Numbered from the stretch's first letter, positions 2,657 through 30,684 are shown. The stretch is DNA of 64,000 nt from Mayamaea pseudoterrestris (GCA_027923505.1 BROI01000011.1:496001-560000), one strand, 5' to 3'. The notes: a model not told the origin generated them from the sequence alone. Made by a program: numbers and translations.

Positions 2657-5600
2657 CTACATCCTTTTAACCTTAAAATGGCGCTCGTGACCAGCATTTG
2701 CAAGCATTAGCGCTGATATGGCGGTGTTTGACATTGAGCGGGTATCAACTCCATCAATCTCGCAAACGATATCCCCCACCGCAATATGCTCTCGAATGGC
2801 GGACGTGTGATGCACCTGGTAGACGCTTGGAGTCCCAGTGCTGGTGTCCAGAACGATTCCAAGCTTGCCTGGAGGAGCCACGAACGAAACAAATCGCGCC
2901 TCGCTTGCTGCACTTGGTGCCCCTTCGGGCACAGCTGCAGCGACACGCATTTCATCCATGCTCGTAGTCTCTGCAACAGAAGCTAAAGACTCTCTTGACG
3001 TGGTTGCACCAGAGTATGTCTCTGATTCACTCTTGACAGCAAAGTCTTCGGAGGGTTGTTCCGCGGTAAACTCGGCGGATAGATTTTCTCGGACGGATGC
3101 TAAATTTCTTGATGAAAGCAATCTGGCTTCAGAACCATCTCGAGACATGCGCCGCTTGCCTACACCCTCGTTGACCCACCACGTCCTCATTTCACCCTTG
3201 CCCTTGATCTTAATTTTGCCACGGTTCTGCAAGCGCATATCTGGGCACTGCTCCTTGAGTATTTTAGCAGCTGCATCTGAACAATGGATTCGATTCTCTC
3301 TTGAATTACTTTCCATGCGAGAAGCCGTATTGACAGCGTCGCCGAATAAGCAATATCGCATGTTGCTCGTTCCCACAACGTCTGCAACGACTGGTCCGCA
3401 GTGGAATCCGACACGTATGTTTACGTATCCTTTGCTTGGGTTCTCGTCGTCAATCAGAGTCTCATTTGCAGCAACAATGGCGTCAATGGCAAATTCAGCA
3501 ATACGTCTAGCATGATCATTGGGCTGATCTTTAACAAGATTTGTTACAGCTGATATAAGCGAAATCATGTTAGACAAGTATATAATGGCCGGAATTTCAG
3601 CAAACCATGACACGTACCAACATAAGCGTCACCAATGGTTTCAAGCTTGAAAACCTCATGGGTTTGAGATAGATTGTCAAACTTGGTATACAACCGACCG
3701 AGCATGGAAGCAACTTTCCTGGGGTCCAAAGTAGCAGAAATGTCTGTAAAGCCGACAATATCACTAAAGAAAATGGTAACGACATCACGATGCTCTGCTT
3801 CAACTGGCCGGCCATCTCGTAATGCTTCAGCAATGTGCCGAGGAAAAATATCAAACAACGAGACGGAGCTCTTTGTGTTGCTACCGTCGACATTCACTTT
3901 CTCAGCGTTGACTCGTTTCAAACGGGTGTCCAGTTCTTCGAATGAAGGTCGAAGCATCGGAGAATCATCAAGGCAGTCGATCATAAGTTGTTTAACCTGG
4001 TCACACATACTTTTTGGCACTGGAGGACGTTTCTGGACCGAGTCATCAATGACTCCCATAATAACAGTTTTTGGGTCTTCACCTTCGTAGGGATCGCGGC
4101 GCGAGTACACTTCGTACAGTATGATCCCAAAGGAATACACATCTGTCGCAGCAGTGTTTGTGCTTTCCTTGCGCAACAACTCCGGTGCCATCCAGAATGG
4201 TGTGCCCGTACCTCCCTTCTTCTGAGACAGTCCAAAGTCAGCAACCTTGGCACGAAATCTGTTATCGACAAGAATGTTTGCCGCCTTCAAGTCGCCATGG
4301 ATGACTTGAGGAACTGCAGAGTGAAGAAACCTTACACCTTGAGTAATATCCTTGAGAAAATTTAATAACATGTCGCCTTCCAAAGCCACAGTCTCGTTGT
4401 GAAGCAGATCGTAGAGCGAGCCATGGTCCATATACTCCATAATCATCATGGGCTCCTCCTTGTCTACGACGGCACCCATAATTGTTGTCACACAAGGGTG
4501 ACGAAGCTTTGACAAATATCTCATCTCGTCAAGAAACTCCTGACGCAGTCTCCTTCGCCAAGCGAAATCACTCTCTCGTCTCTGTGCCATTGGAGTGCTC
4601 AAGTGTCCAGCATTATTTCCGCTCTTGTTGAAACGACTTGTCACTGCTGTAGACGCTGTCGCAAGCGATAGTGAAGCGCCGCCCCAAGAACTTCTGCCAA
4701 ATCCTTTCACAGCACCCATTTCTTCGTCATCCGAGTGACTTGCGTCATTGTCCGTCGAGCGCGAGTGGTCAGTATCATGGTGTGACGACGAAGTTGTCCT
4801 GTCACACTTGCGTCGTGGAATCACATGCTTCACTGCTACTTGCGTGCCTCGGTACTCTGCGAGAAGGACCGTTCCAAAGGTTCCTTGACCAATAACGACG
4901 GGTGGTTCACTAAACTTGAGCTCGCCCCTGTCAACTTTCCACACTGAATCGTTACGTCTTCTTTTACTTTCGAGCCATATAAAGGCTCCGACGCCGAGAA
5001 TGAACGCCAGGGCAATGGGAAGTGCTACAGCGAGTGCAAGATTCGCATCCTCTGGAGGAGGAGCAATGTCAAGTGGAAGTTGAGTTGTTCCATCGTTGAA
5101 TATGTACGCCTCGCGCTGCTCCCAAATTCCATCCACAAATAGCGTCGATACAATTGGTTGGAATGTCACCTTGCTTTCACCAACGTCTTGCTTGATCCAG
5201 TTGGTCACGCGATACAGCGTGCTTGTAGGAAGGCGCGTACCACTGACCGGATCAAACGCCACGGATCCACCGATCCCCGTAAAGTTGGTCTTCCGAAAGG
5301 CTTTGTACTGCTGCCTGCCTGTTATTGACAACGTATTCAGTTCCGCTGCTTCGCAAGCGGCTAGCCCAAGCCCAATGGCCGCTTCATAGTGGAAAGGAGA
5401 ATACGTGTTGGTGACTGGGCTTAAAAACTCCTTTTGAAATATGAACGGATTCTCCTTGTAAGTGGCAGGATAGCTGGGATTGTTGTGCTTGGGAAGAAGG
5501 CTTCCAACGTAATTCAAGTCGGTTGGATTTTTAAGCTTCAACATTTGCGACGCGTATTTGTCAAACCCCTTCATGCCCGGCAAACCACCCGAGGCTTCCA

Positions 5601-6864
5601 CCAAACCGATTCCTTGATACGCCTTGGCCAATACCGAGTCTTTTGAGAACTGACGCCCCTGCAGGTAATTGGCGAATGAATCACCAAACAGCCAATTCGT
5701 CACTCCATTTCCGGCCATATCATTCTTGTACGCCTCCAGCAACAATGCATCGTTCGTTTCAGGCGTAAAGACAATACAGAAAATGAAGCGGTAGTTTGTT
5801 TCTTTGACGCTTTGTATGACTTGCTGAATGCTTTCGTCCGACTCGTCGTTCAACGGAAACTGCCGAATCTGCATGCCGGGCGCATGCACCAAGGCAGCAT
5901 CCCGGAGACTACCAACAAAGGCATTTCCAAAGGCGTCATTCACGTTAATGACAGACAAATATTTCAGTTTGAGTACGTCATGCATGAATTTTATGATTGG
6001 AATGGCATTGCCTTGATCCGATGGAATGGTTCGTCCAAAGAGCGGATACTGCGAACGATCATCCAAGTCCACGCTCGTGGCGTAGGCGGACACTTGCGGA
6101 TACCCCAGGAAACCAGAAACAATGGAGGTTGGAATGGTAATGGAGGACAGTGAGTTGCCAATAAAGGCGCACGGCAACGGCGCCGGGAGTGTTCGCGCCG
6201 TTTGCTCAACCAAATGGCGCAGCGCCTCTCCGCCCTGGCCTTGGTCGTCGGTGAATTCGGCTGTGAAGCGAATCTTGCATCGTTGATTCAACCCGGCAAC
6301 TTGCGGAACAATACTTCCATCGCCCGTATTCAAATGATGCAAGGCCAAGGCAATCGAGTATGTGTCCTCGAGGCCGTCCAGTTGCGGCACAAAGTCGCCG
6401 TAGGTGAACGATGTAATGAGGCTGACGTGACAGATTGCAATCGTTTCATTTGTTTCCGGCAGCGTCAATAAATCGACATTGCTCGTATCCTTGCGTTGGA
6501 TTGTAGTAGTATTGTTGGAGGAAGAGGTTGATGAAGCAACGACGCTCAATTTACGAAGGGCGTCGTAGTATCGGAGCGAAGTGAGAAAGCCGTCGTCGCC
6601 ATCTAAGACTTGGTTGCTGCGTAGTAATGTTCCGTTGTTGACATTCCCATTTGCAAGAGAATCATCATTGTTAACAGTAAGATCATCGTCGTCATTATTC
6701 CCATTCGTGCTCGTTACCGCCAACGTTGGAGCCGTCGTTTCTTCGCTAAATGTCACAGCCGTCGGACCAGCCGTTGATGCTCGAAGGTTTGGCGTGGGAG
6801 CTTCCGTAGTCGCAACGGCTGGCGTCGGCGTGACTCCAAAGACCGTATCGTCAAAGAGAGACAT
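2657..6864 (-). CDS. Receptor-type kinase/guanylate cyclase: ANF-receptor-like ectodomain + TM + TKL-like kinase + class III cyclase + PDZ-like tail; 2 exons (intron 3550-3617)
   Basis: Ectodomain motif [36 protein letters not shown]; kinase [24 protein letters not shown]; cyclase [34 protein letters not shown]-like [17 protein letters not shown]...CAG intron joins DAYV-AVTNL. Confidence 0.9.
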
Positions 6865-7794
6865 GACTTATGATTGTCAAGTGAACAAGTGCTATAATAG
6901 AAGCCTGCCGCTGTTACTTGATCCGATAAAGACCATCTCGAATTTTGAGACTCCGTCTCGTGCCATGGCCAAGCAAAATGCAAAATGACCGGAGATCCCG
7001 CATGACTTCAACATATTTATGCCTGGTGTCACGGGCATATATCAACGAAACAGCTTGGCGTCACTAGGCCCGACAGTAGCCGTTTCGTTGCATGTTTCGG
7101 CCCCGGGCCCCGGGACCATCACAATCACTCAAGGAGGCGCTGACAATCTGTGCAGATTCTACAAAAAAATATTTGCTAGCGCATAGAAAGCAATTTTAAA
7201 GCTAAAGATGAATGAACAGGATCGACGGCGAAGCTCCGCCTTGCTCCTTGACTCCTCGGCTCCTCGAACCTGACTCCATGACGGCGTCGGCGACGGCAAC
7301 GGCAAGCCCACAAGCATCAAGCTTTTGTGGCTGAGCATGCAATTGCGACCCTGTTTAGTTGCTTAAAGCAAAAGTTGAAACCAAGACACGGACAAAAGGT
7401 AGCAACTGCAAAAGGTAGCTAAAAAGGTGAAACACGGTGCGACACGTGTCACTATGCGACATTTAAAGCAGGCATAATTGTTTTCACAATGACCGCTGAA
7501 CCGCGACTGGGTTACGCCACGAAGGCTTCTCGTCACCATGTTCCTCGTCAATCCCAACAACCCTGCCGCTTGCTTGCCTTTGTTGCTTGCTTTTATACCG
7601 CCGAGTCCTTTCGAAGGACGCGAGTAAAACAACATAGTAATCGCTGTGCCTCCTTGTGAGTGAAGCAGAAAAGGCTTCTCGTTGGCGTACGTTTGGGCGA
7701 GCGAGAAAGTCACGACAGCATTTGAATCAACATTTGAATCATACGGAACCACGGAAACATACCGACAAAGCAAACCAAATAAAAAATATATACC

Positions 7795-15321: not shown

Positions 15322-17517
15322 TCAATCGATTTTGATCGCAGACGCCGCTTCCTGGGCGTCTTCTTCTATAGCTAGCTGATGTAACCAGTCCAGCGTCGCT
15401 TGCATGATTTCACTCCAGGTATCGTAGCATTTATATGTAACGCCAAACTCTTTGCAGGTTTCCTTGACAACCGGCGCAATGAGATGCAAATGACAGTGGT
15501 TCAGACCGGGGAACAAATGATGTTCAATCTGGTAGTTGAGCCCGTTGGATAAAAAGTGCCATAGAGTCGACTGACTCGCAAAGTTGTTGGAGGTTTCAAT
15601 TTGCTGAGCTGCCCATGACTCGGCCAACAGCTTTTGACGCTTTGGGTCGCTCGAAAAATCTTGCTTCTCACTCAGATCAAGCGAAGCTTCATTCAAGTGG
15701 TTTATTTGCGAGAATATGGCAAAGATGAGACCCGATGTGGAAACGTGCACTGTCACAGCCGCCCACGCCGAGAGCCATGTTGCGTGGACAAAGTACGGCA
15801 ACACCATGATGATTCCCACGTAGGCAATCACATGAGCAACAAAGCCAAAGTATCGCAGAGGCCTCGACTTGTCCGTCCACTGCACCATGCCATATAAGGA
15901 CGCGCCGTCTTGAAGCATACCCCATGGAATGTAAAAGCAAGTGCCAAAGACCACAAACATGTACGCAAACATGACATACAACCAATGTTGTTGCCACGAA
16001 TGAATGTTCTTCCTCTGAAACCTGCGATGTACCCGCAGCAACGTTTCAAAATGATGCATGTCCGGATCTTTGTAAAAGTCGTTTGTGTGACTATGGTGCG
16101 CATAGGTATGCTGATGCTGCCACAGCATGGGGTTGCACAGCAAGGACATGGCCCAGACGCCAGCATCGTTGATCCACGGAACGTGCGAAACGCAGTAGTG
16201 ACCAGCGTCGTGGCCGAGTGCACCCAAGAGCCAACCAAAGACGGCGAACAGAAAGCTGCCCCATATGCTTCCCTGCGTATTGTACGATGCATGGACGAAA
16301 CAAGCGTGAGTGAGTGCCCATTTAGAGAGCATTTTCATAGTGATCCACCATTCAACAACAACAAGACGTACCTTGCAATGAGCATATCCACAAACAATGA
16401 CACACAATGCAACGACTCCATAGTAGAGCGTTCGTTGCGTGGTCGCCACGCGGTCGCGCATGGGGTCAATGTGATGGCAACGTAGCTTTGCCTGCACTTT
16501 TTGCGCAAGGGTTGCGTAAAACTCGTCGCGCGGCGGGACAGTATCATTCTCACTCGCCAATGTTGAATTCTTGTCAACGCGATACTTGTTCAACACTTGC
16601 ACATGCGACTTGGAAAAGGGATGGTAGGATTCAAAGAGGGCCGTGCAGTCGCGCGACTGGCCCAAAAGAATGGCTTCTTTTCCGCCCGGATGTTTGTCGA
16701 CGTAGTCGTCGAGTCGATAGGCCACGCCGTGAATGATCCAAGTGTTATTGTTGTTACTGTCGCTGACAGGTTTGCCGTTGGTGTCTTTGGTTGCAAGAAG
16801 TTTGTCCGCAAGAATTGACGGTGACGGCGCGCTCACGTTGCAGGAGGTTGCCGAGTCTATTGATTCGTCGTCGAAACACTTGATTGTTGGTGAAGCGTTC
16901 GCCTCGAGATGCAGCCACAGCGACTGCCAATGCTGCACCAGATCGTAGACCAGATACGCTGCGACCACTAGCCAAGCGTTGTCTTGGTAGTCGGCGGTGA
17001 CAGTTGTTGTTGACGATGATGTACTTGTGGCTCGCTCCGTCGTTAAATTTGCCAAGAGTATGACGGAGCAGGTCAACGTCACGGCATCCTGGACAGTGCG
17101 CCGCAGCGGCTTGTGCAGCTTTTTCAGCGCCACGAACCAATGGTCAAAGGCAAGGTATCCGGCCAAGATCGAGTAGCAATGTGATGGAGATGAAGACGTT
17201 TGAACGAACAAGGAGATCGATAGGGCAATGACGGCAATGCCGTGCTGCACAGTCACTGCGTTTCGATGAGACGCATGAAAGGTGGAACTTGTATTCCTTT
17301 GCTTATTCAGTCTCCGCAGCAGCAGCAAAAGTATTCCAGCCACCAACCAAGACACGGCAAAGGAGTAAAAGACGTGAATGTAGTGCGGCTTGCGCGACAC
17401 CAAGGAGGTGCACAGGAACAGCCACATGACCGATAGAACGTGGTCCAACAGTCGTGGTGAAAGTGATGATGATGAATTTGGCATGAGCGAGTCAATGGTT
17501 TTTGTTGTCGTCGCCAT
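15322..17517 (-). CDS. Cytochrome-b5-fused front-end-type fatty acid desaturase with a long N-terminal membrane extension; 2 exons (in-frame intron 16273-16371)
   Basis: HPGG heme motif; His boxes HDAGH, HTYAHH and QIEHH. A 99-bp GTACGT...CAG intron removes an out-of-place segment. Confidence 0.9.
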   Translation of the reverse strand: MATTTKTIDSLMPNSSSSLSPRLLDHVLSVMWLFLCTSLVSRKPHYIHVFYSFAVSWLVAGILLLLLRRLNKQRNTSSTFHASHRNAVTVQHGIAVIALSISLFVQTSSSPSHCYSILAGYLAFDHWFVALKKLHKPLRRTVQDAVTLTCSVILLANLTTERATSTSSSTTTVTADYQDNAWLVVAAYLVYDLVQHWQSLWLHLEANASPTIKCFDDESIDSATSCNVSAPSPSILADKLLATKDTNGKPVSDSNNNNTWIIHGVAYRLDDYVDKHPGGKEAILLGQSRDCTALFESYHPFSKSHVQVLNKYRVDKNSTLASENDTVPPRDEFYATLAQKVQAKLRCHHIDPMRDRVATTQRTLYYGVVALCVIVCGYAHCKVRLVVVEWWITMKMLSKWALTHACFVHASYNTQGSIWGSFLFAVFGWLLGALGHDAGHYCVSHVPWINDAGVWAMSLLCNPMLWQHQHTYAHHSHTNDFYKDPDMHHFETLLRVHRRFQRKNIHSWQQHWLYVMFAYMFVVFGTCFYIPWGMLQDGASLYGMVQWTDKSRPLRYFGFVAHVIAYVGIIMVLPYFVHATWLSAWAAVTVHVSTSGLIFAIFSQINHLNEASLDLSEKQDFSSDPKRQKLLAESWAAQQIETSNNFASQSTLWHFLSNGLNYQIEHHLFPGLNHCHLHLIAPVVKETCKEFGVTYKCYDTWSEIMQATLDWLHQLAIEEDAQEAASAIKID

Positions 17518-18141
17518 GCTGATGATTTTGATTTTGCAGATGATGTTGATGAATGATCGGCAGATGGAAAGTGCCGATGAAATGATGGATCGGAATGCGT
17601 ACAGAAAATGCTGGTAGATTGAGCCTTCAAGGGTAACAGACTGTTTGATCAAGCTTTCTATTCAATCTTCTTAGTCAAAATAAATCGATACTGTTCATGC
17701 TCGTTGGATGTTCCTACAGATTCTTGACATGAAGCCTCCGGTTTCGTCCTGACTGACTCGACTGCTCGAGCAACAATTGCATTGTTGCGCCAGAAATGAT
17801 CGTGTTCTGGCATTAACAACGTGCGTGTTTCATGAATACGAAAATGTCACATAAGCCTCTCGTTTGAATCAACCAATCAGAAGTGACTGGGAGTGACGTA
17901 CTTGGCGCGCCACTCGTGCCTGCCGACGAGCATCCTGTTCCAGCGCGACGCAACCCTTCCCCGACGACGCAGTTTTGAAACGACGTGTTCCTCCTTGATC
18001 CTGCATCACAATAGAGCCAGTAACAAAAGGTATAGCAATCAAAACACTACTCCTAGAACCAAACAAAGGATCTTGAAGCTTTGAGCGAGAGAAAGCAGGA
18101 CGCTCATTTACATTAACAACCAGGCATTGAGATTTGCCATC
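17518..18141. promoter_or_regulatory. Putative bidirectional promoter between the desaturase and the oxidoreductase-CFA gene
   Basis: About 620 bp between divergent ATGs; CCAAT at 17873-17877 and TGACGT at 17894-17899. Function is inferred. Confidence 0.4.
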
Positions 18142-21100
18142 ATGACGACGACGCCTCCAACGAGCAACGCGCCTCAAGCCAGCAACGAGCCTTCAAAGCA
18201 TCCATCTTCCTCTGAGAAGAAACAAATTGTCGCCGTCATTGGCGGCGGCGTGGCCGGTCTCTCCGCCGCCTGGCACTTGCACGTGAACTGCAACGACTAC
18301 CAAGTCTATCTATATGAAGCGTGCGACCGGCTTGGAGGACACGCCTGGACGGTGCCCGTCGTGGACGAAAACAACAAAGCAGTCGACGTGGACATTGGCT
18401 TCATGGTCTTTAATCAAGCCAAATATCCCAACATGGTCGAGTGGTTCCAGGCGCTGAATGTAACAGCCGAAGATTCCGACATGTCGCTCTCCGTCAGCTT
18501 GGATCAAGGCGAATCGGTGGAGTGGTCGTCAAACGGATTGTTTGGGCTACTGGCGAAACCGACGCAACTGCTGCAGCCGTCCTTTTACATGTTCTTGCTG
18601 GACATGGTGCGGTTCAATGCGCAGGCGCCGCAGCTGCTGCTCTTGCCAAACGACGATCCCCGCAAGCATGCCACCACGGCGCAGTACTTGCGCACGCACC
18701 ACTACAGCCAGGCGTTTACGCAGTACTATTTACTGCCAATGATGGCGGCCCTGTGGAGCGCGTCTCTGTCAGACGTCTTGCAGTTTCCGGCCGCGCAGCT
18801 GATTGGTTTCCTGTGCAACCACCGCATGCTGCAACTGTTTGACAGGCCGCTGTGGAAGACTGTGCAGGGGCGGTCGCAAATGTATACAAACAAGTTGCAA
18901 CATGAAATATTTGATCCAGCGCAAGTGTTTGTGTCGGCAAGTGTGCAAGCCGTGGAAAAATTGGAGAGTGGGCAGTATCGCATTGTAACGAATAAATCTG
19001 GTGCCAATGGTGACGGTTTAGTGGTTGATCATGTGATTTTCGCCTGCCATCCGCCCACGGCGCATGCCATTTTGAAGCGAGGCAATGCCAAAAGCAACAA
19101 CTTTGATTCTGTAGCTAACTTAGAGCTGCTCGACTGTTTGAGCAAGATTGACTACGCCGACAATGTGATTTACGTTCACTCGGACCCAAAGCTAATGCCA
19201 AAGCGCAGGCAGGCGTGGGCCTCGTGGAACTGTCTTGGCAAGAGTGAGCATTTGAACATGACCATGGAGAGTCAAAGCAATGCCAGCAAGGGCTCCTTTG
19301 AAGGCGCGGAAAGCGGTTTCGGAAATACACTCGAGCAAGCGAATGGAAACGACAATAACTCGACAGTATCGCTGGAAGGTGCCGATGGCCGCATGAAGGC
19401 CGTATTCGTGACGTATTGGCTCAATCGTTTGCAAAATTTGGAGACTGACAAGAACATTTTCGTATCGCTCAATCCCCACGAGCCACCGGCGCCAGAGTTG
19501 ACGCACAAGCGCGTCATTATGGCCCATCCACAATTCGATCCAGCAACATTGGCTGCGAGAAATAAGATTGAACAAATGCAAGGCCAACACAACATTTGGT
19601 TCTGCGGCGCTTGGTCTGGATATGGCTTTCATGAGGATGGATGTCGATCGGGTTTCCAAGTGGCGACTGCTCTCAGCGAAACGGCTCTTCCGTGGGCGAA
19701 ACAAGCAGATCAGCCGGTCTTGGCGCCGCCCGACCTGTCGCTGGCGTCGGCGCAGCAAGGGGGATTGCTGAAAGTACTCATGGCAGCACATCAGCGTCTG
19801 ACATATGATTGGCCAGTGTCAATTTGCAGGCGGTTCGTCTATCATTTCTTAAAGAGCGCAGTGCAGCAAGGGACTTTCCGGTTGCGACTCAATGACGGGA
19901 CAATCAAAAGCTTTGGCGATGGAACTCCCTGCGGATGTGACGATCATCCTGTGACGCTTCGAGTGTTTGTAAGTATCACCTACTTGTCAAAAAATTATCG
20001 CTGCCTCAATATGTGAGCGAAATGCTAACACTGAATGCTCATCCAATGCAACATCCAGGACGAGTGGTTCTTTGTCAAGGTGGCACTTGAGTACGACCTG
20101 GGTCTGGCTCGATCGTACATGGCTGGGCATTTCGTCGTGGAGCCTCTAAAGGATAGCAGCATGTATCACCAAACCATGAAGCCAAGCGGAGCGCGAGATG
20201 AGACAAATCTTACACTTGGAGATCCCATCGGACTAACTCGACTTTTTCTCCTGCTTGTTGGCAACCGTGATCGCGCTGGAGGCATTCATGTTCCACGCAA
20301 ATCAGGTCGCGGTAACACATATTCGAATGCGTTGACAAATGCATCGGGCCTGATTCTCGCAAAGATTGGTTCACTCTTCAATTACGTTCGCTACAAGCTA
20401 ACAATGGACAATTCAGAGCGTGGAGGAAGTTTGCGAAATATCCACGCACATTATGATCTGAGCAACGATCTTTTTACGTCATTCCTTGACAAGGAACATC
20501 TCATGTATTCTTGTGGAATATGGGACGCCATACCAGCACCGACATCGAGATCAGGCTTGATTTTCCGTGGAACATTAGAAGAAGCACAGACTCGCAAGCT
20601 GGATAATTTGTTGGAGCGAGCGCAGGTGAAGCCTGGTCAAACTGTCCTGGACATTGGCTTTGGCTGGGGCGGATTGAGTATTCGAGCAGCAAAGCGATTC
20701 GGCTGCAAGGTAACAGGCATTACATTGTCAGTCGAACAACAGGCTTTAGCCGAGAAGCGAGTGAAAGAAATGGGTCTCGACCATTTGATTACATTTGAGG
20801 TAGTCGATTATCGCACCTTTGCTCGACGATTAGAGAACAAAGGGAAGTTTGACCGTGTGCTCAGCTGCGAGATGATTGAAGCTGTCGGCCATGAGCATCT
20901 CGGCGAATTCTTCTGGGCGGTGGAGCAACTTTTGAGTCGGGACGGTGTGCTTGTCATGCAGGCGATTACTACACCAGAGGAACGATATGAAACTTACCGA
21001 CGATCAACTGACTTCATCAATACCATCATTTTTCCTGGCTCGTGTTGTCCGTCGCTTCACGCTCTGACTGTTGCCATGTATAGAGAATCGACCCTTTGTT

Positions 21101-21399
21101 TGGAGCACATCGATAACATTGGTCTACACTACGCTGAGACGCTGGCTGAGTGGCGACGCAGGTTCAATGCGAATGAAAGCATTGTTCGAAGCCTTGGTTT
21201 TGATGATGTGTTTCTCCGCGCCTGGAACTACTACTTGACGTACTGTGAAGCAGGATTCTTCTCGCAAACCGAGAATTGCCTGCAGCTCGTATTTGCTCGC
21301 CCAGGATGTCGATCGCTCGTTCCGCTCTGCGAGACGAGGTCGGTGAAGCAGGCCCCTTTGCTGACTAAAGGAGAGATTCAGAATTGGATTAACGCTTAG
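18142..21399 (+). CDS. Fusion of FAD-dependent amine-oxidase-like oxidoreductase (COG2907-like) and cyclopropane-fatty-acyl-phospholipid-synthase-family SAM methyltransferase; 2 exons (intron 19969-20058)
   Basis: VIGGGVAGL, RLGGH, DIGFMVFN, AWASWN, GAWSGYGFHEDG; then NIHAHYDLSNDLF, LDIGFGWGG, EMIEAVG, HYAETLAEW, WNYYLTYCEAGF. A GTAAGT...CAG intron joins both ORFs in frame (VF|DEWFF). Confidence 0.92.
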
Positions 21400-21452: not shown

Positions 21453-24400
21453 CTAAGCTATTGCTTGTACTTTGGACTCTGCAAAGGATGTTGCAGTTTC
21501 GATAACGCTCTCGATTGATTGGCATTCCTGTGCCTGACCCTGCGCATTGTTTGGTCTTCCGCCACCGCGTCCACCGCATGCCTCAAGCGCTACCCGAACC
21601 CATTCGTCAGCTTTAAACCCTACGTCAACTAATTCATCAGGCACGCATGCAAAGGCAAGTACCTTTCCGCCACTTCCAACCTCCTCTTCGCTCAATCCAA
21701 AAAAGGCCAAGTCAGGTGCCAACTCTTTGATGGTATTTGTAACGCGCTGAGACGCTTTCGAGTCTGCGCCTATGTCCACGTTTAATACCAGTGACTTTTT
21801 ACCAGCAGCATTTGCCGCTTCGACCTCGCGTCGAACATCATTGAGACACAAGTCAACTCGTTGTTGCATTTCCTTTTTCTTTGCTTCGCTGGCGTTCTTT
21901 TGTATGCCTTCTATTTTTCCTCTTAGTTCAGCTTTTATTGTCGTTGCAACAAAAGCCGCATCAAGGTCTTTACGAACCGCGCCGGCTTTCTTGTCAAGGT
22001 CGGATGTGGTGGCTGGTATTTTTTCAAGTTCGTTAACAAGCTCGACAAATCGTTGACCTTCCGCAATCGCCTGCTTGGCAGCACCCTTCGTGACGGCACT
22101 TATACGGCGAATTCCCTTAGCAACTGCTGTCTCTTCAACAAGCACAAAGGCTTCTGCTTCAGCAGTGTTCGACAAATGCGTCCCGCCACAGAATTCTACG
22201 GAAGTCTCGTCACCAACTGTCACAACTTTGACAGGATCAGGATAAACCTCGCCAAACACAGCCCGTACCCCATTTATTTGCTTCGCCTCATCAAGAGGCA
22301 TTACCTGGCTAATGACTACCTGCTTCTTCTTGACAACATTCTGGCAGTAATCTTCGACAGCTTTGAGTTGCGCCGGCGTCAACGCCTTCTTGTAGCTGAA
22401 ATCGAAGCGAAGTTTCTCTTCATTACAAAGGCTACCTCGCTGGTCGCAATCAGCTCCGAGAACTTGTCGCAGAGCAGCATTCAGTACATGCGTCATGGAA
22501 TGGTTCGGAGCGATGAGGCGGCGGCGTTCATAGTCAACTTTGCAATTGACTGCCTGGCCCACTCGAAGCGAACCTCCTTCAATAACACCCTTGTGAAGAA
22601 TAAAGCCTGCATACACCTGAGAGTCTTTCACGTTAAATTTGCCAGACACTGTCTTGCTGTCGTTCCAAATTTCAACAATGCCAGTGTCAGCGACTTGTCC
22701 ACCAGATTCGGCGTAGTAGGACGATTTGTCGAGAATGACACCAACAAAATCGCCTTCTCGTGCTTCTGCACCGTCCTCGAGAAATCCATCCTCGCTGAAA
22801 ATTGCCATGACTGTCGCTGGAAGCTCCACGTCCCACTTATATTTAAAGCTGTCATCCGTTGGTTCAACATCATTGTCTGCCAACCAAGCCGTTTGTTCGG
22901 CAATCAGCTCCAACGCAGGCGCGCCACCTGCTCGAGCAGCCTTTTGCGCTTGTCGTGAGCGATTCTTTTGCTGTTCCATTTCAGTCTCAAATCCCTTGAC
23001 ATCCAGTGACATGCCCGCTTCCTGCGCCATGAGTTCGGTCAAATCAATGGGAAAGCCAAGCGTGTCGTACAAGTAGAATGCTCGACTACCAGAAACCACC
23101 GTTTCACCCGACTCCTGCAGCTCATGCTGCATGTCGTCAAAATACTTGATACCTCGCTCCAACATGCTGCTGAATGCTTGCTCTTCCTCTTGAATAATTT
23201 CCGTAATTGTGGATTGCGCTGCCTTAAGCTCTGGATAAAATTCGCCAAACGTTTCCACCACCACTGGCACGAGCGTTGCGAAAAAGCCCGGTTCCGCCTT
23301 TAGTATTTGCTGTCCATATCGCGTGGCTCGTCGAAGAATGCGCCGCAACACATAACCCCGCCCTTCATTGTTTGGCACGGCGCCATCGGCAATGGCGAAC
23401 GACAGTGTGCGAACGTGATCGGCAATGGCGCGGTAGGCCGTATCCTTCAAGTCGACATCGTCTTGGCCAACGCGTCCCTCGTAGGCTCCAATCTTGCTGT
23501 GCTTGGCGAGTTGCGCAAAGATTGGTTGAAAGACGTCAATGTCATAGTTGGAAGTCTTAAGCTGCAGAATGCTCACCAGTCGCTCCAATCCCATGCCCGT
23601 GTCAATATGTTTCGCGGGTAGCAGCTGCAAACCCTTTTCGTCGCGATTGTACTGAATGAATACAATATTCCTGTCACAAAGAGCAGTGTTTGTGAGACAA
23701 GAACGTGTAACAGCATGATCACCATTCAATCACAACAACAATAATATCATACATACCATATTTCAATCACATTGGGGTCATCCGCGTTGACCAAGTGTCG
23801 CGCGTCTGGTCGTTCTCCACTACTATCATCAATACTACGCCGATCGTAGTGAATCTCGCTGCACGGCCCGCACGGCCCCGTGTCACCCATTTCCCAAAAG
23901 TTGTCGCGCGCGTCGCACGCAATGACCCGCGATTCCGGCAAGTATTTCAACCAGCAGTTTCGAGCATCAACGTCCTCGTCGACTTGATCGTTGCCGTTAA
24001 AGTACGTGGCGTAGATTCGCTCCGGATCAAGTTTGTACACATTGACGAGCAAGTCCCACGCCATGTCAATGGCTTTTTCTTTAAAGTAGTCGTCAAACGA
24101 CCACGTGCCAAGCATTTCGAAAAACGTGTGATGATAGGTATCGCGGCCCACATCCTCCAAGTCGTTGTGCTTGCCGCCGGCGCGAATGCACTTTTGCGCG
24201 TTCACCACTCGTTTCAGACGCGCCAGTGGACTCTGCGGATCCACTTGGCCTAAAAAGATGGGTTTGAACTGGTTCATGCCGGCGTTGGTGAAGAGCAAGG
24301 TGGGATCGTTGAGGGGAGCGCAGGCGCTGGAGGGTTGAAAGACGTGATGGTGCGAGTCTTGAAAGTAGTTGATAAAGGTGGAGCGGACCTTGTCCGTGGA

Positions 24401-24604
24401 CCAAGTGATGTCACTGTTGTTTTCGTCATTGCTATTGCTAGTGTCGGATGCTGAGGTAGAAGCCGTCATGAAGCGCAAGGTGCGTGACATTCCAAACTTG
24501 CGACCATGGTGGTAAGGGACAAAGGCGAAGGCTCGTCGCCAGACGAGAGCACCACCAATAACAATCATGGCCAATTGGCGAGAGGATGAAGCAGCAAGAG
24601 GCAT
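21453..24604 (-). CDS. AARS: Alanyl-tRNA synthetase with N-terminal organellar presequence; 2 exons (intron 23671-23756)
   Basis: [33 protein letters not shown], spliced [19 protein letters not shown], editing motifs HSMTH and EFCGGTH, C-terminal GGRGGG. Confidence 0.97.
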
Positions 24605-24924
24605 AAGGAAGCTTGGAGTTGACGTAAATTTCGTTCCTTGACAGAAAATTGAGTGATGGCAGCTTGTCGGTCGATCGTAGAACGATTCGGGCAGCTAAAA
24701 TCAAGCGGCAGAAGAAAAATCTTCTCAATCTTTTTCTAGTGCTTTTGCAAGTATTGAAGCTTGGCAGCAGGCTCGTAGGTTGCTAGTGACAAGTCGTCGC
24801 GTCAGCAGTCACACGGATTCTATCCCCATGGTCCAGTCGTTCGTTCGTTGACGGATGGAACGAGGATGACGTACAAATGAATTGCGTTACGACACTTTCA
24901 AATGTCGCGAGTGAAAAGGTATAT

Positions 24925-27190: not shown

Positions 27191-27685
27191 GATACGGCGG
27201 CGGTCTCAGCGGCAGCCAGTGCGACGGAAGACGCTCTTGTAGCGGACGAAGTTAATCAACAAGCTACTAGCGACAAAGTTACGGATTTCATTCCTGTTGT
27301 ACTTATTGTCGTTGGTAAAGCTAATGGCAGTCGTTGCAAACGCACGCTTACCGCCCTTTGCGACTCAGGAGCCTCGACAAGTTGGATTAGCCAAAGAGCG
27401 GCACATGGATTGCCTCAGTGCAAAGCGCCACGTTTAGTATCACAGACTGCAGTTGGCAAATTGGAGAGCTCTACCAAGATTGATTTTGCCGAGTCGTTCC
27501 TTCCCGAGTTAAGTACTTCAAAAAGGATCGGCGCCTTTCCAGTGCGAGTCTTCCAGCAGGATATAAGGTATGACATGCTGCTGGGGCGAGACGTCTTAAC
27601 GGCGCTCGGATTGACCATTGACTTTGGAGACAAACAAATCAATTGGGGTAATCAATCGACTCCAATGGTGACGATGGAGGATTGA
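27191..27685 (+). CDS. Retroviral-type aspartic protease region, in frame with gag beyond its TGA
   Basis: Translating on from the gag stop gives ...[13 protein letters not shown]...YDMLLGRD; there is no ATG upstream of the DSG motif. Confidence 0.85.
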
Positions 27686-30684
27686 GCAACCGGCCAAAAC
27701 AAATCAGAGACTCTTTGATTGAGCGGTTTGTCCTTTTCTCTGATACTGAACCAGACCTGCATACAAGCGAGGAGATTTTATCAGCTAAGTATAACAAAGT
27801 GTCGACTGATGAGGTTGCAGACCAATCGACTCATTTAAATGAGAAGCAACGTACCGATTTAAAACGCCTCTTACGACGCTTTCCCGCTCTCTTCTCAGGC
27901 AAGCTTGGCAAATACCCACACGAGCTAGTCCACATTGACATTGATCCACAAGCTAAACCAGTCCATAAAAGACATTATCCAGTGCCTCGAGTGCATGAGC
28001 AAACCTTTAAGGAAGAGCTTGATCGACTCGTCGAACTCGGTGTACTTGAGCCTTGCGGCCGCAGCGAATGGGCGGCGCCCACCTTTATTATACCAAAGAA
28101 GGACAAGACTGTACGCTTTGTCTCTGACTTTAGAGCATTGAACAAAGTAATCAAGAGGCGCACGTTCCCGATGCCGCGGATCCATGAACTGCTGGCGAGG
28201 CGCAGCGGATACAAGTTCTTTACCAAGCTTGATATTTCAATGCAGTATTATACCTTCCAGTTGGACAAGGAGAGCAGCAAGCTCTGTACAATTGCAACGC
28301 CGTTTGGTTTGTTTCGATACTTGCGTTTGCCAATGGGCGTCAATCAAGCCCCCGATATTGCTCAAGAGGTGATGGAGAAGGTTTTACAAGGATTGCGCGA
28401 CGTTGAAAAGTACCTTGATGACGTCGGTTGCTTTAGCGACACTTGGCAAGAGCATTTAAAGCTATTGGAGTCTGTTTTAAAGCGACTCGAGGATAGCGGC
28501 TTTACAATCAATCCAAGCAAGTGCGAATGGGGCGTCAAGGAAACCGACTGGCTTGGGTACTGGCTCACGCCGACAGGCCTCAAACCCTGGCCCAAGAAAG
28601 TCCAAGCAATTGTGGATATGAAGCCTCCTACCAATCTCAAGCAGTTGCGCTCATTCCTTGGTCTTGTTACTTACTATCGCACCATGTGGCCTCGTCGGTC
28701 GCACATGCTTGCTCCGTTGACGAATCTCGTTGGCAAAAAGACCTTTCAATGGGGCGCGCCTCAACACAAGGCATTCGAAGAAATGAAAGCTGTTGCAGCA
28801 AGCGATGTACTCCTTCGCTATCCTGATCATAACAAGCCATTCGTCATCAAAACGGATGCGTCTGATTATCAACTCGGCGCCGTCATCCTTCAAGATGGCG
28901 TGCCGGTGGCTTACTTTTCGCGCAAACTCAATTCCGCCCAAGTCAATTACACAACCATTGAAAAAGAATTGCTAAGTATTGTTGAAACGCTCAAAACGTT
29001 TCGTTCGATGCTGCTTGGAGCGCGTTTGCAAATCCATACGGACCATAAAAATCTCACCCACGATTTGACCGCCTTTCAAACACAGCGCGTCCTTCGCTGG
29101 CGCCTGTACTTGGAGGAGTTCGGGCCCGAGTTCTGTTACCTCAAAGGGGAGCTAAACACTGTTGCAGACGCTCTTTCAAGGGTGCCAACAGAAAGGGAAA
29201 CCTCTCTAGTGGGGGAGAGCCCTGTTGATGTTTTGAAACAACGACAGGAAGCGCAAAAGGCAGCAATGCCCATGCGACAATCGCTACCTTTGCGACAGAA
29301 TTCCCATCACGATGACAACTTACACGGTGTCAACGATGGCCATCACGATGGCGGCGTTCTTGCACATTCAAACGAATCAACAACAAACGACCATGGGGAA
29401 AGGCAAATTGAAGAGCTATCAATTGCTAATAATGAAGGTTACTGTCTCCTACGGGACGAACCAGAGCTTGCAGAGTGCCTGCTCCTCCATCCGGAGTTCG
29501 ACGAACAAGGGCGATATCCCCTGTCGTATTCAACCATTGCCGAGTATCAACAAGAAGATGCAACGCTAATGGCCGCAGTCCAAAACCAAGACGCGGCAAC
29601 CATACAATACAAACAACTTGGAGACGTTCAGATTGTTGTATTCCAAGCAGACGAACGCTGGCGAATCTGCATCCCCAGTGCGATCCTCGATCGCTTGATT
29701 CTTTGGTACCACCTCTCAATGGCCCACGCTGGAATGACTCGCCTCACAACGAGCATCAAACAGCACTTTTACCATCCTAAGCTCAAGCAGCGCGTCGAGC
29801 ATCTTGTTGGTGCTTGCGATACTTGCCAACGCAACAAAGGAGGCAGCCGCCAATATGGAGAGCTGCCAGCGAGAGACGTGCGCGTCGCTCCTTGGTATGA
29901 AGTCCACGTTGACCTCATCGGCCCATGGAAAGTATCAGTGAACGGCATTGACTGTTATTTCAGAGCGTTAACGATGATTGACCCAGTTACTAACCTCGTC
30001 GAAATTGTTCGCTATCAGGACAAGTCGGCGTATCATATCGGCCGTCTCTTTGAAGACACCTGGCTCTCTCGTTACCCTCGACCAATGCGACTCATTGCAG
30101 ACCAAGGCAGTGAGTTTAAAGGGGCATTTGGAACTATCCTTGAATACAATGGGATTGATTGGCATGCCGCTTCGGCCAAGACGCCCACCGCTAACAGCAT
30201 TTGCGAGCGCTGTCACCTCGTTATTGGCAACGTGCTTCGTACACTTGTACACGCTCATCCGCCCGAGGATTTGATGGAAGCTGACGATATAATCGATCAA
30301 TGCCTCGCGACAGCAATGCATGCAACACGAGTTGTATCAAGTGGAGCTCTTGATAACCTTTCTCCCGGCGCCGTCGTCTTTCAACGCGACATGTTCTTGG
30401 ATATACCTCTTGTTGCCGACATTCTAGCTATCTCTGTTAAACGAGAAGCGATTGTCAATGAACGTTTGCTCCAAGCGAATCGTTCGAGACTGACTCATGA
30501 CTTTAAAGTTGACGAGCAGATCCTCAAAAAGGTATACGACCCTAACAAGCTCGAAGAACGATGGATCGGTCCTTATTCAATTGAACAAGTCCACGTTAAT
30601 GGAACGGTTACCATTCGCCTCTCGCCTATGGTGACTGACCGAGTTAATATTCGACGTATCAAGCCGTACCGGCAAGACGTTTAA
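27682..30684 (+). CDS. pol: Pol: reverse transcriptase, RNase H, integrase (in the -1 frame relative to the protease)
   Basis: RT DFRALN, LPMG, YLDD; RNase H TDASD, EKELL, TDHKNL; integrase HHCC (HLSMAH...CDTC), DLIG, DQGSEF, ER, GPY. No chromodomain seen. Confidence 0.95.

Follow-up and report, generated by a model that had tools for sequence, protein, structure and literature searches.

A flavoprotein-methyltransferase fusion gene and an orphan cytochrome b5 desaturase gene lie head to head in the diatom Mayamaea pseudoterrestris

Positions 15322..21399 of a 64,000-nucleotide stretch of the diatom Mayamaea pseudoterrestris (BROI01000011.1:496001-560000, hereafter the window) hold two divergent genes for lipid-modifying enzymes. 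One encodes a flavoprotein joined to a methyltransferase of the cyclopropane fatty acid (CFA) synthase kind and is the expected diatom orthologue of a known eukaryotic family (plant cyclopropane synthase/UFAMD). The other encodes a putative cytochrome b5 desaturase of an orphan clade. The preferred reading, held with middling confidence, is that a fusion of the UfaD-UfaM type stands next to this desaturase as two separate, expressed genes, whereas coupling of the two in function is thought unlikely. As it stands, the "cluster" is an adjacency in a single genome, and its fusion is of a kind already known and widespread.

Three long open reading frames (ORFs) make up the region. The minus-strand ORF at 15322..17517 matches Pfam Cyt-b5 (PF00173, E 3e-9) and FA_desaturase (PF00487, E 6e-31; ORF residues 419-697). 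On the plus strand, the ORF at 18142..20016 matches Amino_oxidase (PF01593, E 1e-14) and NAD_binding_8 (PF13450, E 2e-11), and the ORF at 20035..21399 matches CMAS (PF02353, E 2e-73). The two plus-strand ORFs belong to one gene, joined in frame across a 90-nt phase-0 intron, and the product of 609 + 446 = 1055 amino acids is 100% identical to the deposited M. pseudoterrestris protein MPSEU_000596400 (GKY96368.1). The start of its second exon aligns with residues 47-73 of Escherichia coli Cfa. The desaturase ORF runs through an in-frame 99-nt intron, which shows as a 33-residue gap when the ORF is compared with the deposited 698-residue protein MPSEU_000596300 (GKY96367.1). A first-pass annotation made from the sequence alone had recognized a diatom host, two genes diverging from a spacer of about 620 bp (624 bp by start codons) and three activities, namely a cytochrome b5 desaturase, a flavoprotein and a CFA-family methyltransferase, all of which the Pfam domains bear out. 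Its gene models were right in content but lacked both introns.

Both genes are expressed as spliced transcripts, because contigs from public sequencing runs skip both introns exactly. The contigs come from four runs of one study (X1 to X4), none of them recorded as RNA, and carry no expression levels. The 99-nt desaturase intron is skipped by one contig each in X2, X3, and X4. Position 19968 is joined to 20059 across the 90-nt fusion intron by one contig each in X3 and X4, and loose contig ends in X2 match the same junction; the fusion is thus one transcript across its exon junction. On the desaturase side, contigs of X2-X4 extend to 17710; those on the fusion side start at 17984-18027, which leaves about 270 bp uncovered. 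X1, in which no splice joints occur, spans the intergenic bin 17732-17942, a bin with zero depth in X2-X4. The spacer is probably a shared or back-to-back promoter region that holds both 5' untranslated regions, and the CCAAT (~17873) and TGACGT (~17894) motifs within it are candidate promoter elements. Separately, X1 contains contigs with clustered base differences (95-99% alike) alongside identical ones across 15418-20840, which may represent a second haplotype or a related strain.

The flavoprotein half of the fusion carries a flavin adenine dinucleotide (FAD)-binding motif, VAVIGGGVAGLSAAW, at residues 30-44, with GxGxxG at residues 33-38. It resembles bacterial homologues over residues ~30-511 and shares 31-37% identity with genes that precede DUF1365. 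Among solved structures, the amine oxidase LkcE matches it best (E 2e-24), and many of its residues are invariant across diatoms. The second exon encodes the S-adenosylmethionine (SAM) motif VLDIGFGWG. The order of an FAD amine-oxidase-like domain followed by CMAS in one polypeptide is that of the eukaryotic oxidase-CMAS fusion family, and the fusion shows both motifs described for it, an FAD motif near the oxidase N-terminus and the SAM motif VL(E/D)xGxGxG (PMC3132707). The likeness to the plant cyclopropane synthase of Sterculia, proposed in the first-pass annotation, holds for the architecture (PMC3132707).

Fusions of this kind are widespread. Among the best 120 matches to the flavoprotein half, 82 are at least 750 residues long, and both the flavoprotein and the CMAS Pfam domains are given for most rows. 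Named carriers include Nitzschia inconspicua, Phaeodactylum tricornutum (XP_002183150), Fragilariopsis cylindrus, Thalassiosira pseudonana, Cyclotella, Skeletonema, and Amphora.

Bacterial relatives place the fusion near the furan fatty acid genes. A scan of prokaryotic genomes with the flavoprotein-half alignment kept 80 loci (L081-L160) at 30-37% identity, mostly from Xanthomonadales and phylogenetically clustered. The locus of Xanthomonas arboricola (L092, 4915-13911) encodes, by Pfam, an extracytoplasmic function (ECF) sigma factor, an anti-sigma factor (RskA_C), FA_desaturase (332 residues), Amino_oxidase, DUF1365, CMAS, DUF1295, and a second CMAS, in that order. DUF1365 follows the flavoprotein gene in 80/80 loci, and a CMAS gene related to the diatom methyltransferase is present in 76/80, the other four loci being short or cut. 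A desaturase gene precedes the flavoprotein gene in 75/80, DUF1295 occurs in 68/80, and the second CMAS in 60/80. These counts agree with the first-pass statement that genes for a desaturase, a COG2907-type flavoprotein, and DUF1365 stand together with a cfa-like gene in bacteria. Desaturase-bearing loci beyond Xanthomonadales come from Hahella, Marinicella, one Planctomycetota, one Fibrobacteraceae, and one Pseudomonadales member. The sigma factor gene of the X. arboricola locus is matched in 49/80 loci, with varying identity and position. Among 14 control genomes, DUF1365 is matched in Caulobacter only.

In the bacterial pathway, UfaM, UfaD and the DUF1365 protein UfaO convert vaccenate to the furan acid 9M5-FuFA through 11Me-12t-18:1 and 11Me-10t,12t-18:2 (PMC7380195). 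The flavoprotein half is kin to genes beside DUF1365, as expected of a UfaD-type protein, the comparison being with operon homologues rather than with UfaD itself. Both halves of the fusion appear, from sequence likeness, to descend from the bacterial gene kinds that flank DUF1365 in operons of the furan-fatty-acid type. The link to UfaD, UfaM, and UfaO drawn in the first-pass annotation is consistent with this (PMC7380195, PMC10940516).

The desaturase does not share this ancestry in any specific way. The operon desaturase is assigned by NCBIfam to the DesA family, below that model's cut-off, and the diatom and operon desaturases are related only at the superfamily level (BLASTP E 0.034). The diatom desaturase finds no match by tblastn against the 80 bacterial loci.

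The first-pass annotation had taken the adjacency as a sign of a co-regulated pathway, proposed linkage in other diatoms as a check, and named its absence in related genomes as a refutation. In Nitzschia inconspicua, the one species examined and the only other one for which both proteins are named, that linkage is absent. Four separate contigs hold its two desaturases, KAG7366384 and KAG7352298 (contig sizes 5.38 and 4.35 Mb), and its two fusions, KAG7347900 and KAG7368559 (3.52 and 4.24 Mb), and the adjacency that a conserved cluster would show in another genome with both genes is not seen there. The fusion also occurs elsewhere without a listed desaturase orthologue, and the operon desaturase is related only through the superfamily; the co-regulated pathway is not upheld. 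On present evidence, the adjacency is peculiar to the Mayamaea lineage and not a conserved two-gene pathway.

The foremost alternative is a true mini-cluster, in which one bidirectional promoter serves the orphan desaturase and the fusion and both act in a single pathway analogous to the bacterial desaturase-ufaD-ufaO-ufaM operons, with the desaturase making the monoene for the methyltransferase or acting on the methylated product. It is unlikely, though a serious possibility. The head-to-head start codons 624 bp apart, with about 270 bp clear of intron-skipping contigs, and the spliced contigs of both genes in the same runs (X2-X4) are consistent with it. So are the DesA-family desaturase immediately upstream of the flavoprotein gene in 75/80 bacterial loci of several lineages, the lack of an assigned role for the diatom desaturase in polyunsaturated fatty acid (PUFA) synthesis, and the unusual Cys and Gln pair in the Mayamaea methyltransferase. 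The four unlinked genes of N. inconspicua argue against it. The fusion is present in Phaeodactylum, T. pseudonana, F. cylindrus, and Cyclotella, yet no named desaturase orthologue from them appears among the best 120 matches, and furan acids have reportedly been found in Phaeodactylum, to go by the title of a 1993 study by Batna. The absence of a specific relationship between diatom and operon desaturases points the same way. Desaturase contigs of at least 20 kb (22165, 20837, 105577, 20381, 154420, and 184654 nt) share no size with the listed fusion contigs, a weak indication that covers only the longest contig per cluster. A metagenome scan with the desaturase alignment gave 80 loci among the matches listed, and none has a flavoprotein or CMAS gene within 10 kb (E <= 1e-5), a count that bears on distant relatives of 24-31% identity and not on orthologues.

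The methyltransferase half has its best solved relatives in the CFA synthases 5z9o, 6bqc, and 7qos. Residues C139, E239, H266, I268, and Y317, whose identities were checked in E. coli K-12 cfa, are presumably the active-site set of Cfa. Mayamaea has C/E/Q/I/Y at these positions and keeps 4/5, which departs from the canonical set. It also scores below the NCBIfam models for true CFA synthases (NF008686, 216.1 bits against a cut-off of 400; NF053839, 218.5 against 600). The active-site alignment covers 82 eukaryotic fusions, 75 first-operon CMAS, 60 second-operon CMAS, and E. coli Cfa. Position 266 is Glu in 76/82 and Gln in 2/82 of the eukaryotic fusions, Gln in 75/75 of the first-operon CMAS, and His in 58/60 of the second-operon CMAS. 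Position 139 is Ser in 79/82 eukaryotic fusions and 70/75 first-operon CMAS; in Mayamaea it is Cys. The Cys and Gln pair also occurs in one distant eukaryotic homologue (P0119), and P0009 combines Cys with Gly.

Of the phylogenies proposed in the first-pass annotation for both halves, a tree of the methyltransferase half with operon CMAS and E. coli Cfa, the only canonical Cfa in it, was built. Rows with fewer than 250 filled columns or at least 75% identical to a kept row were dropped, leaving 76/218, and the tree was rooted on the second-operon CMAS. The first-operon rows include one mislabelled fragment (L157). The 13 eukaryotic rows form one clade, with a Shimodaira-Hasegawa-like approximate likelihood-ratio test (SH-aLRT) value of 100. 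This clade joins the first-operon CMAS, with which the diatom methyltransferase is 36-45% identical, and leaves Cfa outside (SH-aLRT 98). Grouping with operon CMAS and the non-His residue at position 266 would be compatible with a UfaM-type enzyme, in a comparison that represents UfaM through operon CMAS, themselves perhaps of the RSP1089 kind.

That the fusion is instead a plant-type cyclopropane synthase like those of Sterculia and cotton (GhCPS1/2), forming dihydrosterculate-like acids with the flavoprotein assisting or stabilizing, is distinctly unlikely. The two-domain architecture and the SAM motif are the same, the solved relatives are the CFA synthases named above, the C139-equivalent cysteine is kept as in E. 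coli Cfa, and removal of the oxidase domain leaves GhCPS1 with ~30% of its activity (PMC3132707). However, the H266 equivalent is Gln, the scores fall under the NCBIfam CFA cut-offs, and the clade of GhCPS3 and Arabidopsis, within the same family, gave no cyclopropane acids (PMC3132707). The invariant flavoprotein residues across diatoms fit a catalytic role rather than an assisting one. A literature search for "cyclopropane fatty acid synthase" and "diatom" shows no diatom enzyme at the level of titles and abstracts, which is a weak indication.

The desaturase has HPGG in its cytochrome b5 domain and the histidine boxes HDAGH, WQHQHTYAHH (WQHQHTYAHHSHTN, the second box), and QIEHHLFP, all invariant in 35 aligned relatives. 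An N-terminal cytochrome b5 domain with HPGG, three boxes, and a third box of the Q type together mark a front-end cytochrome b5 fusion. The boxes are not those of the Δ5 and Δ6 enzymes of the eicosapentaenoic acid (EPA) pathway of Fistulifera, Phaeodactylum, and Thalassiosira, which are HDFLHH / WKNKHNGHH / QVDDHHLFP for Δ6 and HDANH / W..(Q/K)HWTHH / QVEHHLFP for Δ5 (PMC3877899, Table 1). Two Fistulifera members of the Mayamaea clade, GAX16474 and GAX19479, lie outside the PUFA set of the same table.

A search with the cytochrome b5 and desaturase part listed 120 best matches, down to E 3e-42. Those named come from Fistulifera solaris, Nitzschia inconspicua, Pseudo-nitzschia, Seminavis robusta, Cylindrotheca, and two brown-line algae, together with transcriptomes. 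Genomes with members of the clade include those of Pseudo-nitzschia multistriata, P. multiseries, and Fragilariopsis kerguelensis. Among these 120 there is no characterized member and no named protein of Phaeodactylum, T. pseudonana, F. cylindrus, or Cyclotella. Judged by sequence, the desaturase is a predicted O2-dependent di-iron enzyme of an orphan diatom/ochrophyte clade and not a Δ5 or Δ6 enzyme of the EPA pathway. On Seminavis robusta scaffold Sro20, three members of the clade (g013920, g014010, and g014020) lie within ~23 kb, at about 36-59 kb, as a local expansion, and their models lack the N-terminal domain described below.

An ordinary front-end PUFA desaturase (Δ4, Δ5, or Δ6) that is a neighbor by chance is very unlikely. 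It would explain the N-terminal HPGG and the Q-type third box QIEHH, both typical of front-end enzymes (PMC3877899), and relatives carry the automatic names "acyl-lipid (8-3)-desaturase" and "Probable Delta(5) fatty acid desaturase." Yet the boxes do not match the Δ5 and Δ6 sequences known from three diatoms, and the clade has an N-terminal membrane domain of its own. Moreover, no named Phaeodactylum or Thalassiosira desaturase is among the best 120, although Phaeodactylum has five cytochrome b5 fusion desaturases that cover Δ4, Δ5, and Δ6 (PMC4377986, Table 2).

The N-terminal extension of the desaturase carries the motifs LC..LV, GYLAFD.W, and EDA.TL in ~29/35 aligned relatives. An exhaustive search with the 250 N-terminal residues found 29 representatives among 1.84 billion proteins, and the match lies at or near the N-terminus in all of them; Pfam places Cyt-b5 behind the domain in 6/7 short representatives. 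AlphaFold models six helices (21-42, 44-72, 79-108, 111-131, 138-165, and 175-207) with a predicted local distance difference test (pLDDT) score mostly of 80-97. Modeled alone, the domain has a mean pLDDT of 81 and a predicted template modeling (pTM) score of 0.73; the corresponding values for the whole desaturase are 80.2 and 0.66. The extension is thus modeled as a lineage-specific six-helix membrane domain.

Neither the whole desaturase model nor the N-terminal model has a Foldseek match in the PDB at E <= 0.001, and a search of the ESM Atlas with the domain gave no usable match. A Pfam scan of the domain and eight short relatives at E <= 5 returned only Cyt-b5. VIA-align pairs the domain with TMEM120A (Z 9.4, root-mean-square deviation (rmsd) 2.3, 113 residues aligned), CerS6 (Z 8.7, rmsd 3.6, 147 residues), and yeast ceramide synthase (Z 8.0, rmsd 4.0, 153 residues). 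A TMEM120A/ceramide synthase fold is treated as a lead only, the Z scores being below threshold for helical bundles and designed bundles also reaching Z 8.

Fungal sphingolipid C9-methyltransferases belong to the CMAS family, and the Δ8/Δ10 desaturases of sphingolipid long-chain bases are cytochrome b5 fusions. A joint role for both genes on long-chain bases, with a base desaturase and a C9-methyltransferase-like enzyme yielding 9-methyl polyunsaturated sphingoid bases, draws on these family ties and on the faint likeness of the N-terminal domain to ceramide synthases (Z 8.7) and TMEM120A (Z 9.4), but it is most unlikely: these Z scores are below a meaningful level for helical bundles, Foldseek and Pfam TLC give no match, the sole sphingolipid desaturase among the matches listed stands at E 4e-4, no T. 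pseudonana protein is among the 120 close desaturase relatives, and the fusion family is also present in Arabidopsis, where AT3G23510 is on lipid droplets (PMC3132707, PMC10940516).

Several points weigh against the preferred reading of a UfaD-UfaM-type fusion beside an unconnected desaturase. The synteny comparison covers one other species only, and because the N-terminal domain is missing from the Nitzschia desaturase models, these may be incomplete or paralogues. A desaturase beside a UfaD/UfaM-like pair mirrors the arrangement of 75/80 bacterial operons, and two acyl-chain modifiers would seldom be neighbors by chance. On a rough assumption of ~15 desaturases in ~10^4 genes, about 0.3% of genes would have a desaturase neighbor, a figure that overstates the significance of the pair because the pair was picked after the fact. 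The methyltransferase tree has a single canonical Cfa. We know of no chemistry established for any diatom member of the fusion family. No DUF1365 gene is found by Pfam among the window's 29 long ORFs, as the first-pass annotation had noticed. The Mayamaea product may differ from that of other eukaryotic fusions, because it has Cys and not Ser at position 139 and Gln and not Glu at position 266, unlike nearly all of them. All comparisons were made with operon homologues and not with UfaM and UfaD themselves, and the operon methyltransferase could be the counterpart of RSP1089 of C. sphaeroides, which is dispensable, and not of UfaM (PMC7380195). Finally, the fusion architecture does not fix the product, because the Sterculia and GhCPS1/2 members make cyclopropanes without needing the oxidase domain (PMC3132707).

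If the fusion is of the UfaD-UfaM type, its C-terminal SAM methyltransferase would work like UfaM and add a methyl carbon to a monoenoic acyl chain in a lipid, at the cis double bond. Dehydrogenation of the neighboring C-C bond by the N-terminal FAD domain, in the manner of UfaD, would follow, giving a methyl-branched conjugated diene, and an unlinked DUF1365 protein of the UfaO type could close the furan ring with O2. The head-to-head layout would probably give both genes adjacent or shared promoter sequences. In phototrophs, such a pathway may be part of the singlet-oxygen response; the Chlamydomonas genes CFA1 and CFA2 respond to singlet oxygen by induction via SAK1, as does a DUF1365 gene (PMC4067076).

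A conserved diatom fusion of the UfaD-UfaM type is a testable candidate for an algal route to furan acids, which are thought to reach fish via the food chain. Furan fatty acids are reported in algae, plants, and fish (PMC6213525); the described pathway is the bacterial one (PMC7380195), and for the plant enzymes a role has been proposed on similarity alone (PMC10940516). The clade of the desaturase is unstudied and has a domain found in no other proteins, which is of interest even if the adjacency is accidental. The pairing is noteworthy because bacterial furan-type operons repeatedly include a desaturase of their own. Tentatively, and against the balance of probability, the Mayamaea pair may be the eukaryotic counterpart of the bacterial desaturase-ufaD-ufaO-ufaM operon, with the orphan desaturase, whose six-helix N-terminal domain possibly binds acyl-CoA or lipid, making a dedicated monoene or processing the methylated product and the Cys/Gln site giving a product distinct from that of other diatoms. 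Were this true, it would show how algae, the presumed source of fish furan acids, make furan or methyl-branched acids, and assign a function to the unstudied desaturase clade.

Table 1. Features of the desaturase and fusion genes (positions in the window)
Feature	Position	Strand	Content and basis
Desaturase exon 2, stop included	15322..16272	-	Most of the FA_desaturase domain; HDAGH, HTYAHH (in WQHQHTYAHHSHTN), QIEHH; border from GKY96367.1 and spliced contigs
Desaturase intron, 99 nt, in frame	16273..16371	-	GT..AG (GTACGT...CAG); skipped by contigs
Desaturase exon 1	16372..17517	-	N-terminal six-helix domain, disordered linker, cytochrome b5, start of the desaturase domain
Predicted N-terminal six-helix membrane domain, residues ~21-208	~16894-17457	-	AlphaFold model and family alignment
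Cytochrome b5 domain with HPGG, residues 255-314	16576-16755	-	Pfam PF00173
Divergent spacer, start codon to start codon, 624 bp	17518..18141		Sequence
Fusion exon 1, 609 residues	18142..19968	+	UfaD-like FAD flavoprotein, then start of the CFA-synthase-like N-terminal lobe
Fusion intron, 90 nt, phase 0	19969..20058	+	GTAAGT..CAG; inside the CFA-synthase N-terminal lobe, not at a domain junction
Fusion exon 2, 446 residues and stop	20059..21399	+	CMAS SAM methyltransferase; Pfam domain at ~20431-21285

The long ORFs of the window include no other lipid genes, and the neighbors are an alanyl-tRNA synthetase and unrelated genes. The synthetase gene is the next one downstream of the fusion gene and points towards it, in two ORFs at 21456-24694 (-) with tRNA-synt_2c split at ~23730-23750. 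A long ORF at 27652-30681 (+) with reverse transcriptase, RNase H, and an integrase zinc-binding domain is a Ty3/gypsy-like retrotransposon pol. Two adjoining ORFs at 2660-6867 (-) carry an ANF-receptor ligand-binding region, a protein kinase domain, and a split guanylate cyclase domain, and are probably one receptor-type cyclase gene with an intron.

Among known systems, the nearest in architecture are the plant proteins. Plant cyclopropane synthases are oxidase-CMAS fusions whose oxidase domain has no assigned function, and the fusions of Sterculia foetida and cotton GhCPS1/2 have the Mayamaea architecture (PMC3132707). Those enzymes are shown to make dihydrosterculate; Mayamaea has Gln at the His266 equivalent. 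The GhCPS3/AT3G23510 type is likewise described as an FAD amine-oxidase-like domain followed by a CMAS domain, with FAD and SAM motifs. Arabidopsis AT3G23510, named AtUFAMD1, shares 34% identity with UfaM and 38.5% with UfaD, and fusions of its type have been proposed, from similarity only, to merge the roles of UfaD and UfaM (PMC10940516). The Mayamaea protein differs from this type in its length of 1055 residues, in a flavoprotein half of 609 residues against ~420-450 in bacterial homologues, and in having C and Q where 79/82 and 76/82 eukaryotic relatives have S and E.

The bacterial Ufa system (C. sphaeroides RSP2144, RSP1091, and RSP1090; R. palustris RPA2569-2571) shares with the diatom fusion a non-His residue at the Cfa H266 position, as seen in operon CMAS, and the best bacterial kin of the diatom halves lie in operons of ufaD-ufaO(-ufaM) order. 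The diatom enzymes differ in being fused, in their eukaryotic host and introns, and in lacking a DUF1365 gene within the window. The Xanthomonadales-type operon also places a membrane desaturase directly beside the flavoprotein gene, but its desaturase is a DesA-family protein of 332 residues without cytochrome b5 and is co-directional with the flavoprotein gene. E. coli Cfa (6bqc) shares with the methyltransferase half the CMAS fold, the N-terminal lobe, and the C139, E239, I268, and Y317 equivalents; it differs in H266, replaced by Gln in Mayamaea, in the NCBIfam score (216 in Mayamaea against a cut-off of 400), and in lying outside the group of eukaryotic and operon sequences in the tree. 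The diatom front-end desaturases (PtD5, PtD6, and Fistulifera Δ5/Δ6) have the same cytochrome b5 HPGG, three His boxes, and Gln in the third box as the Mayamaea desaturase, which is set apart by its own His-box sequences, its extra six-helix N-terminal domain as modeled, and its place in a separate clade.

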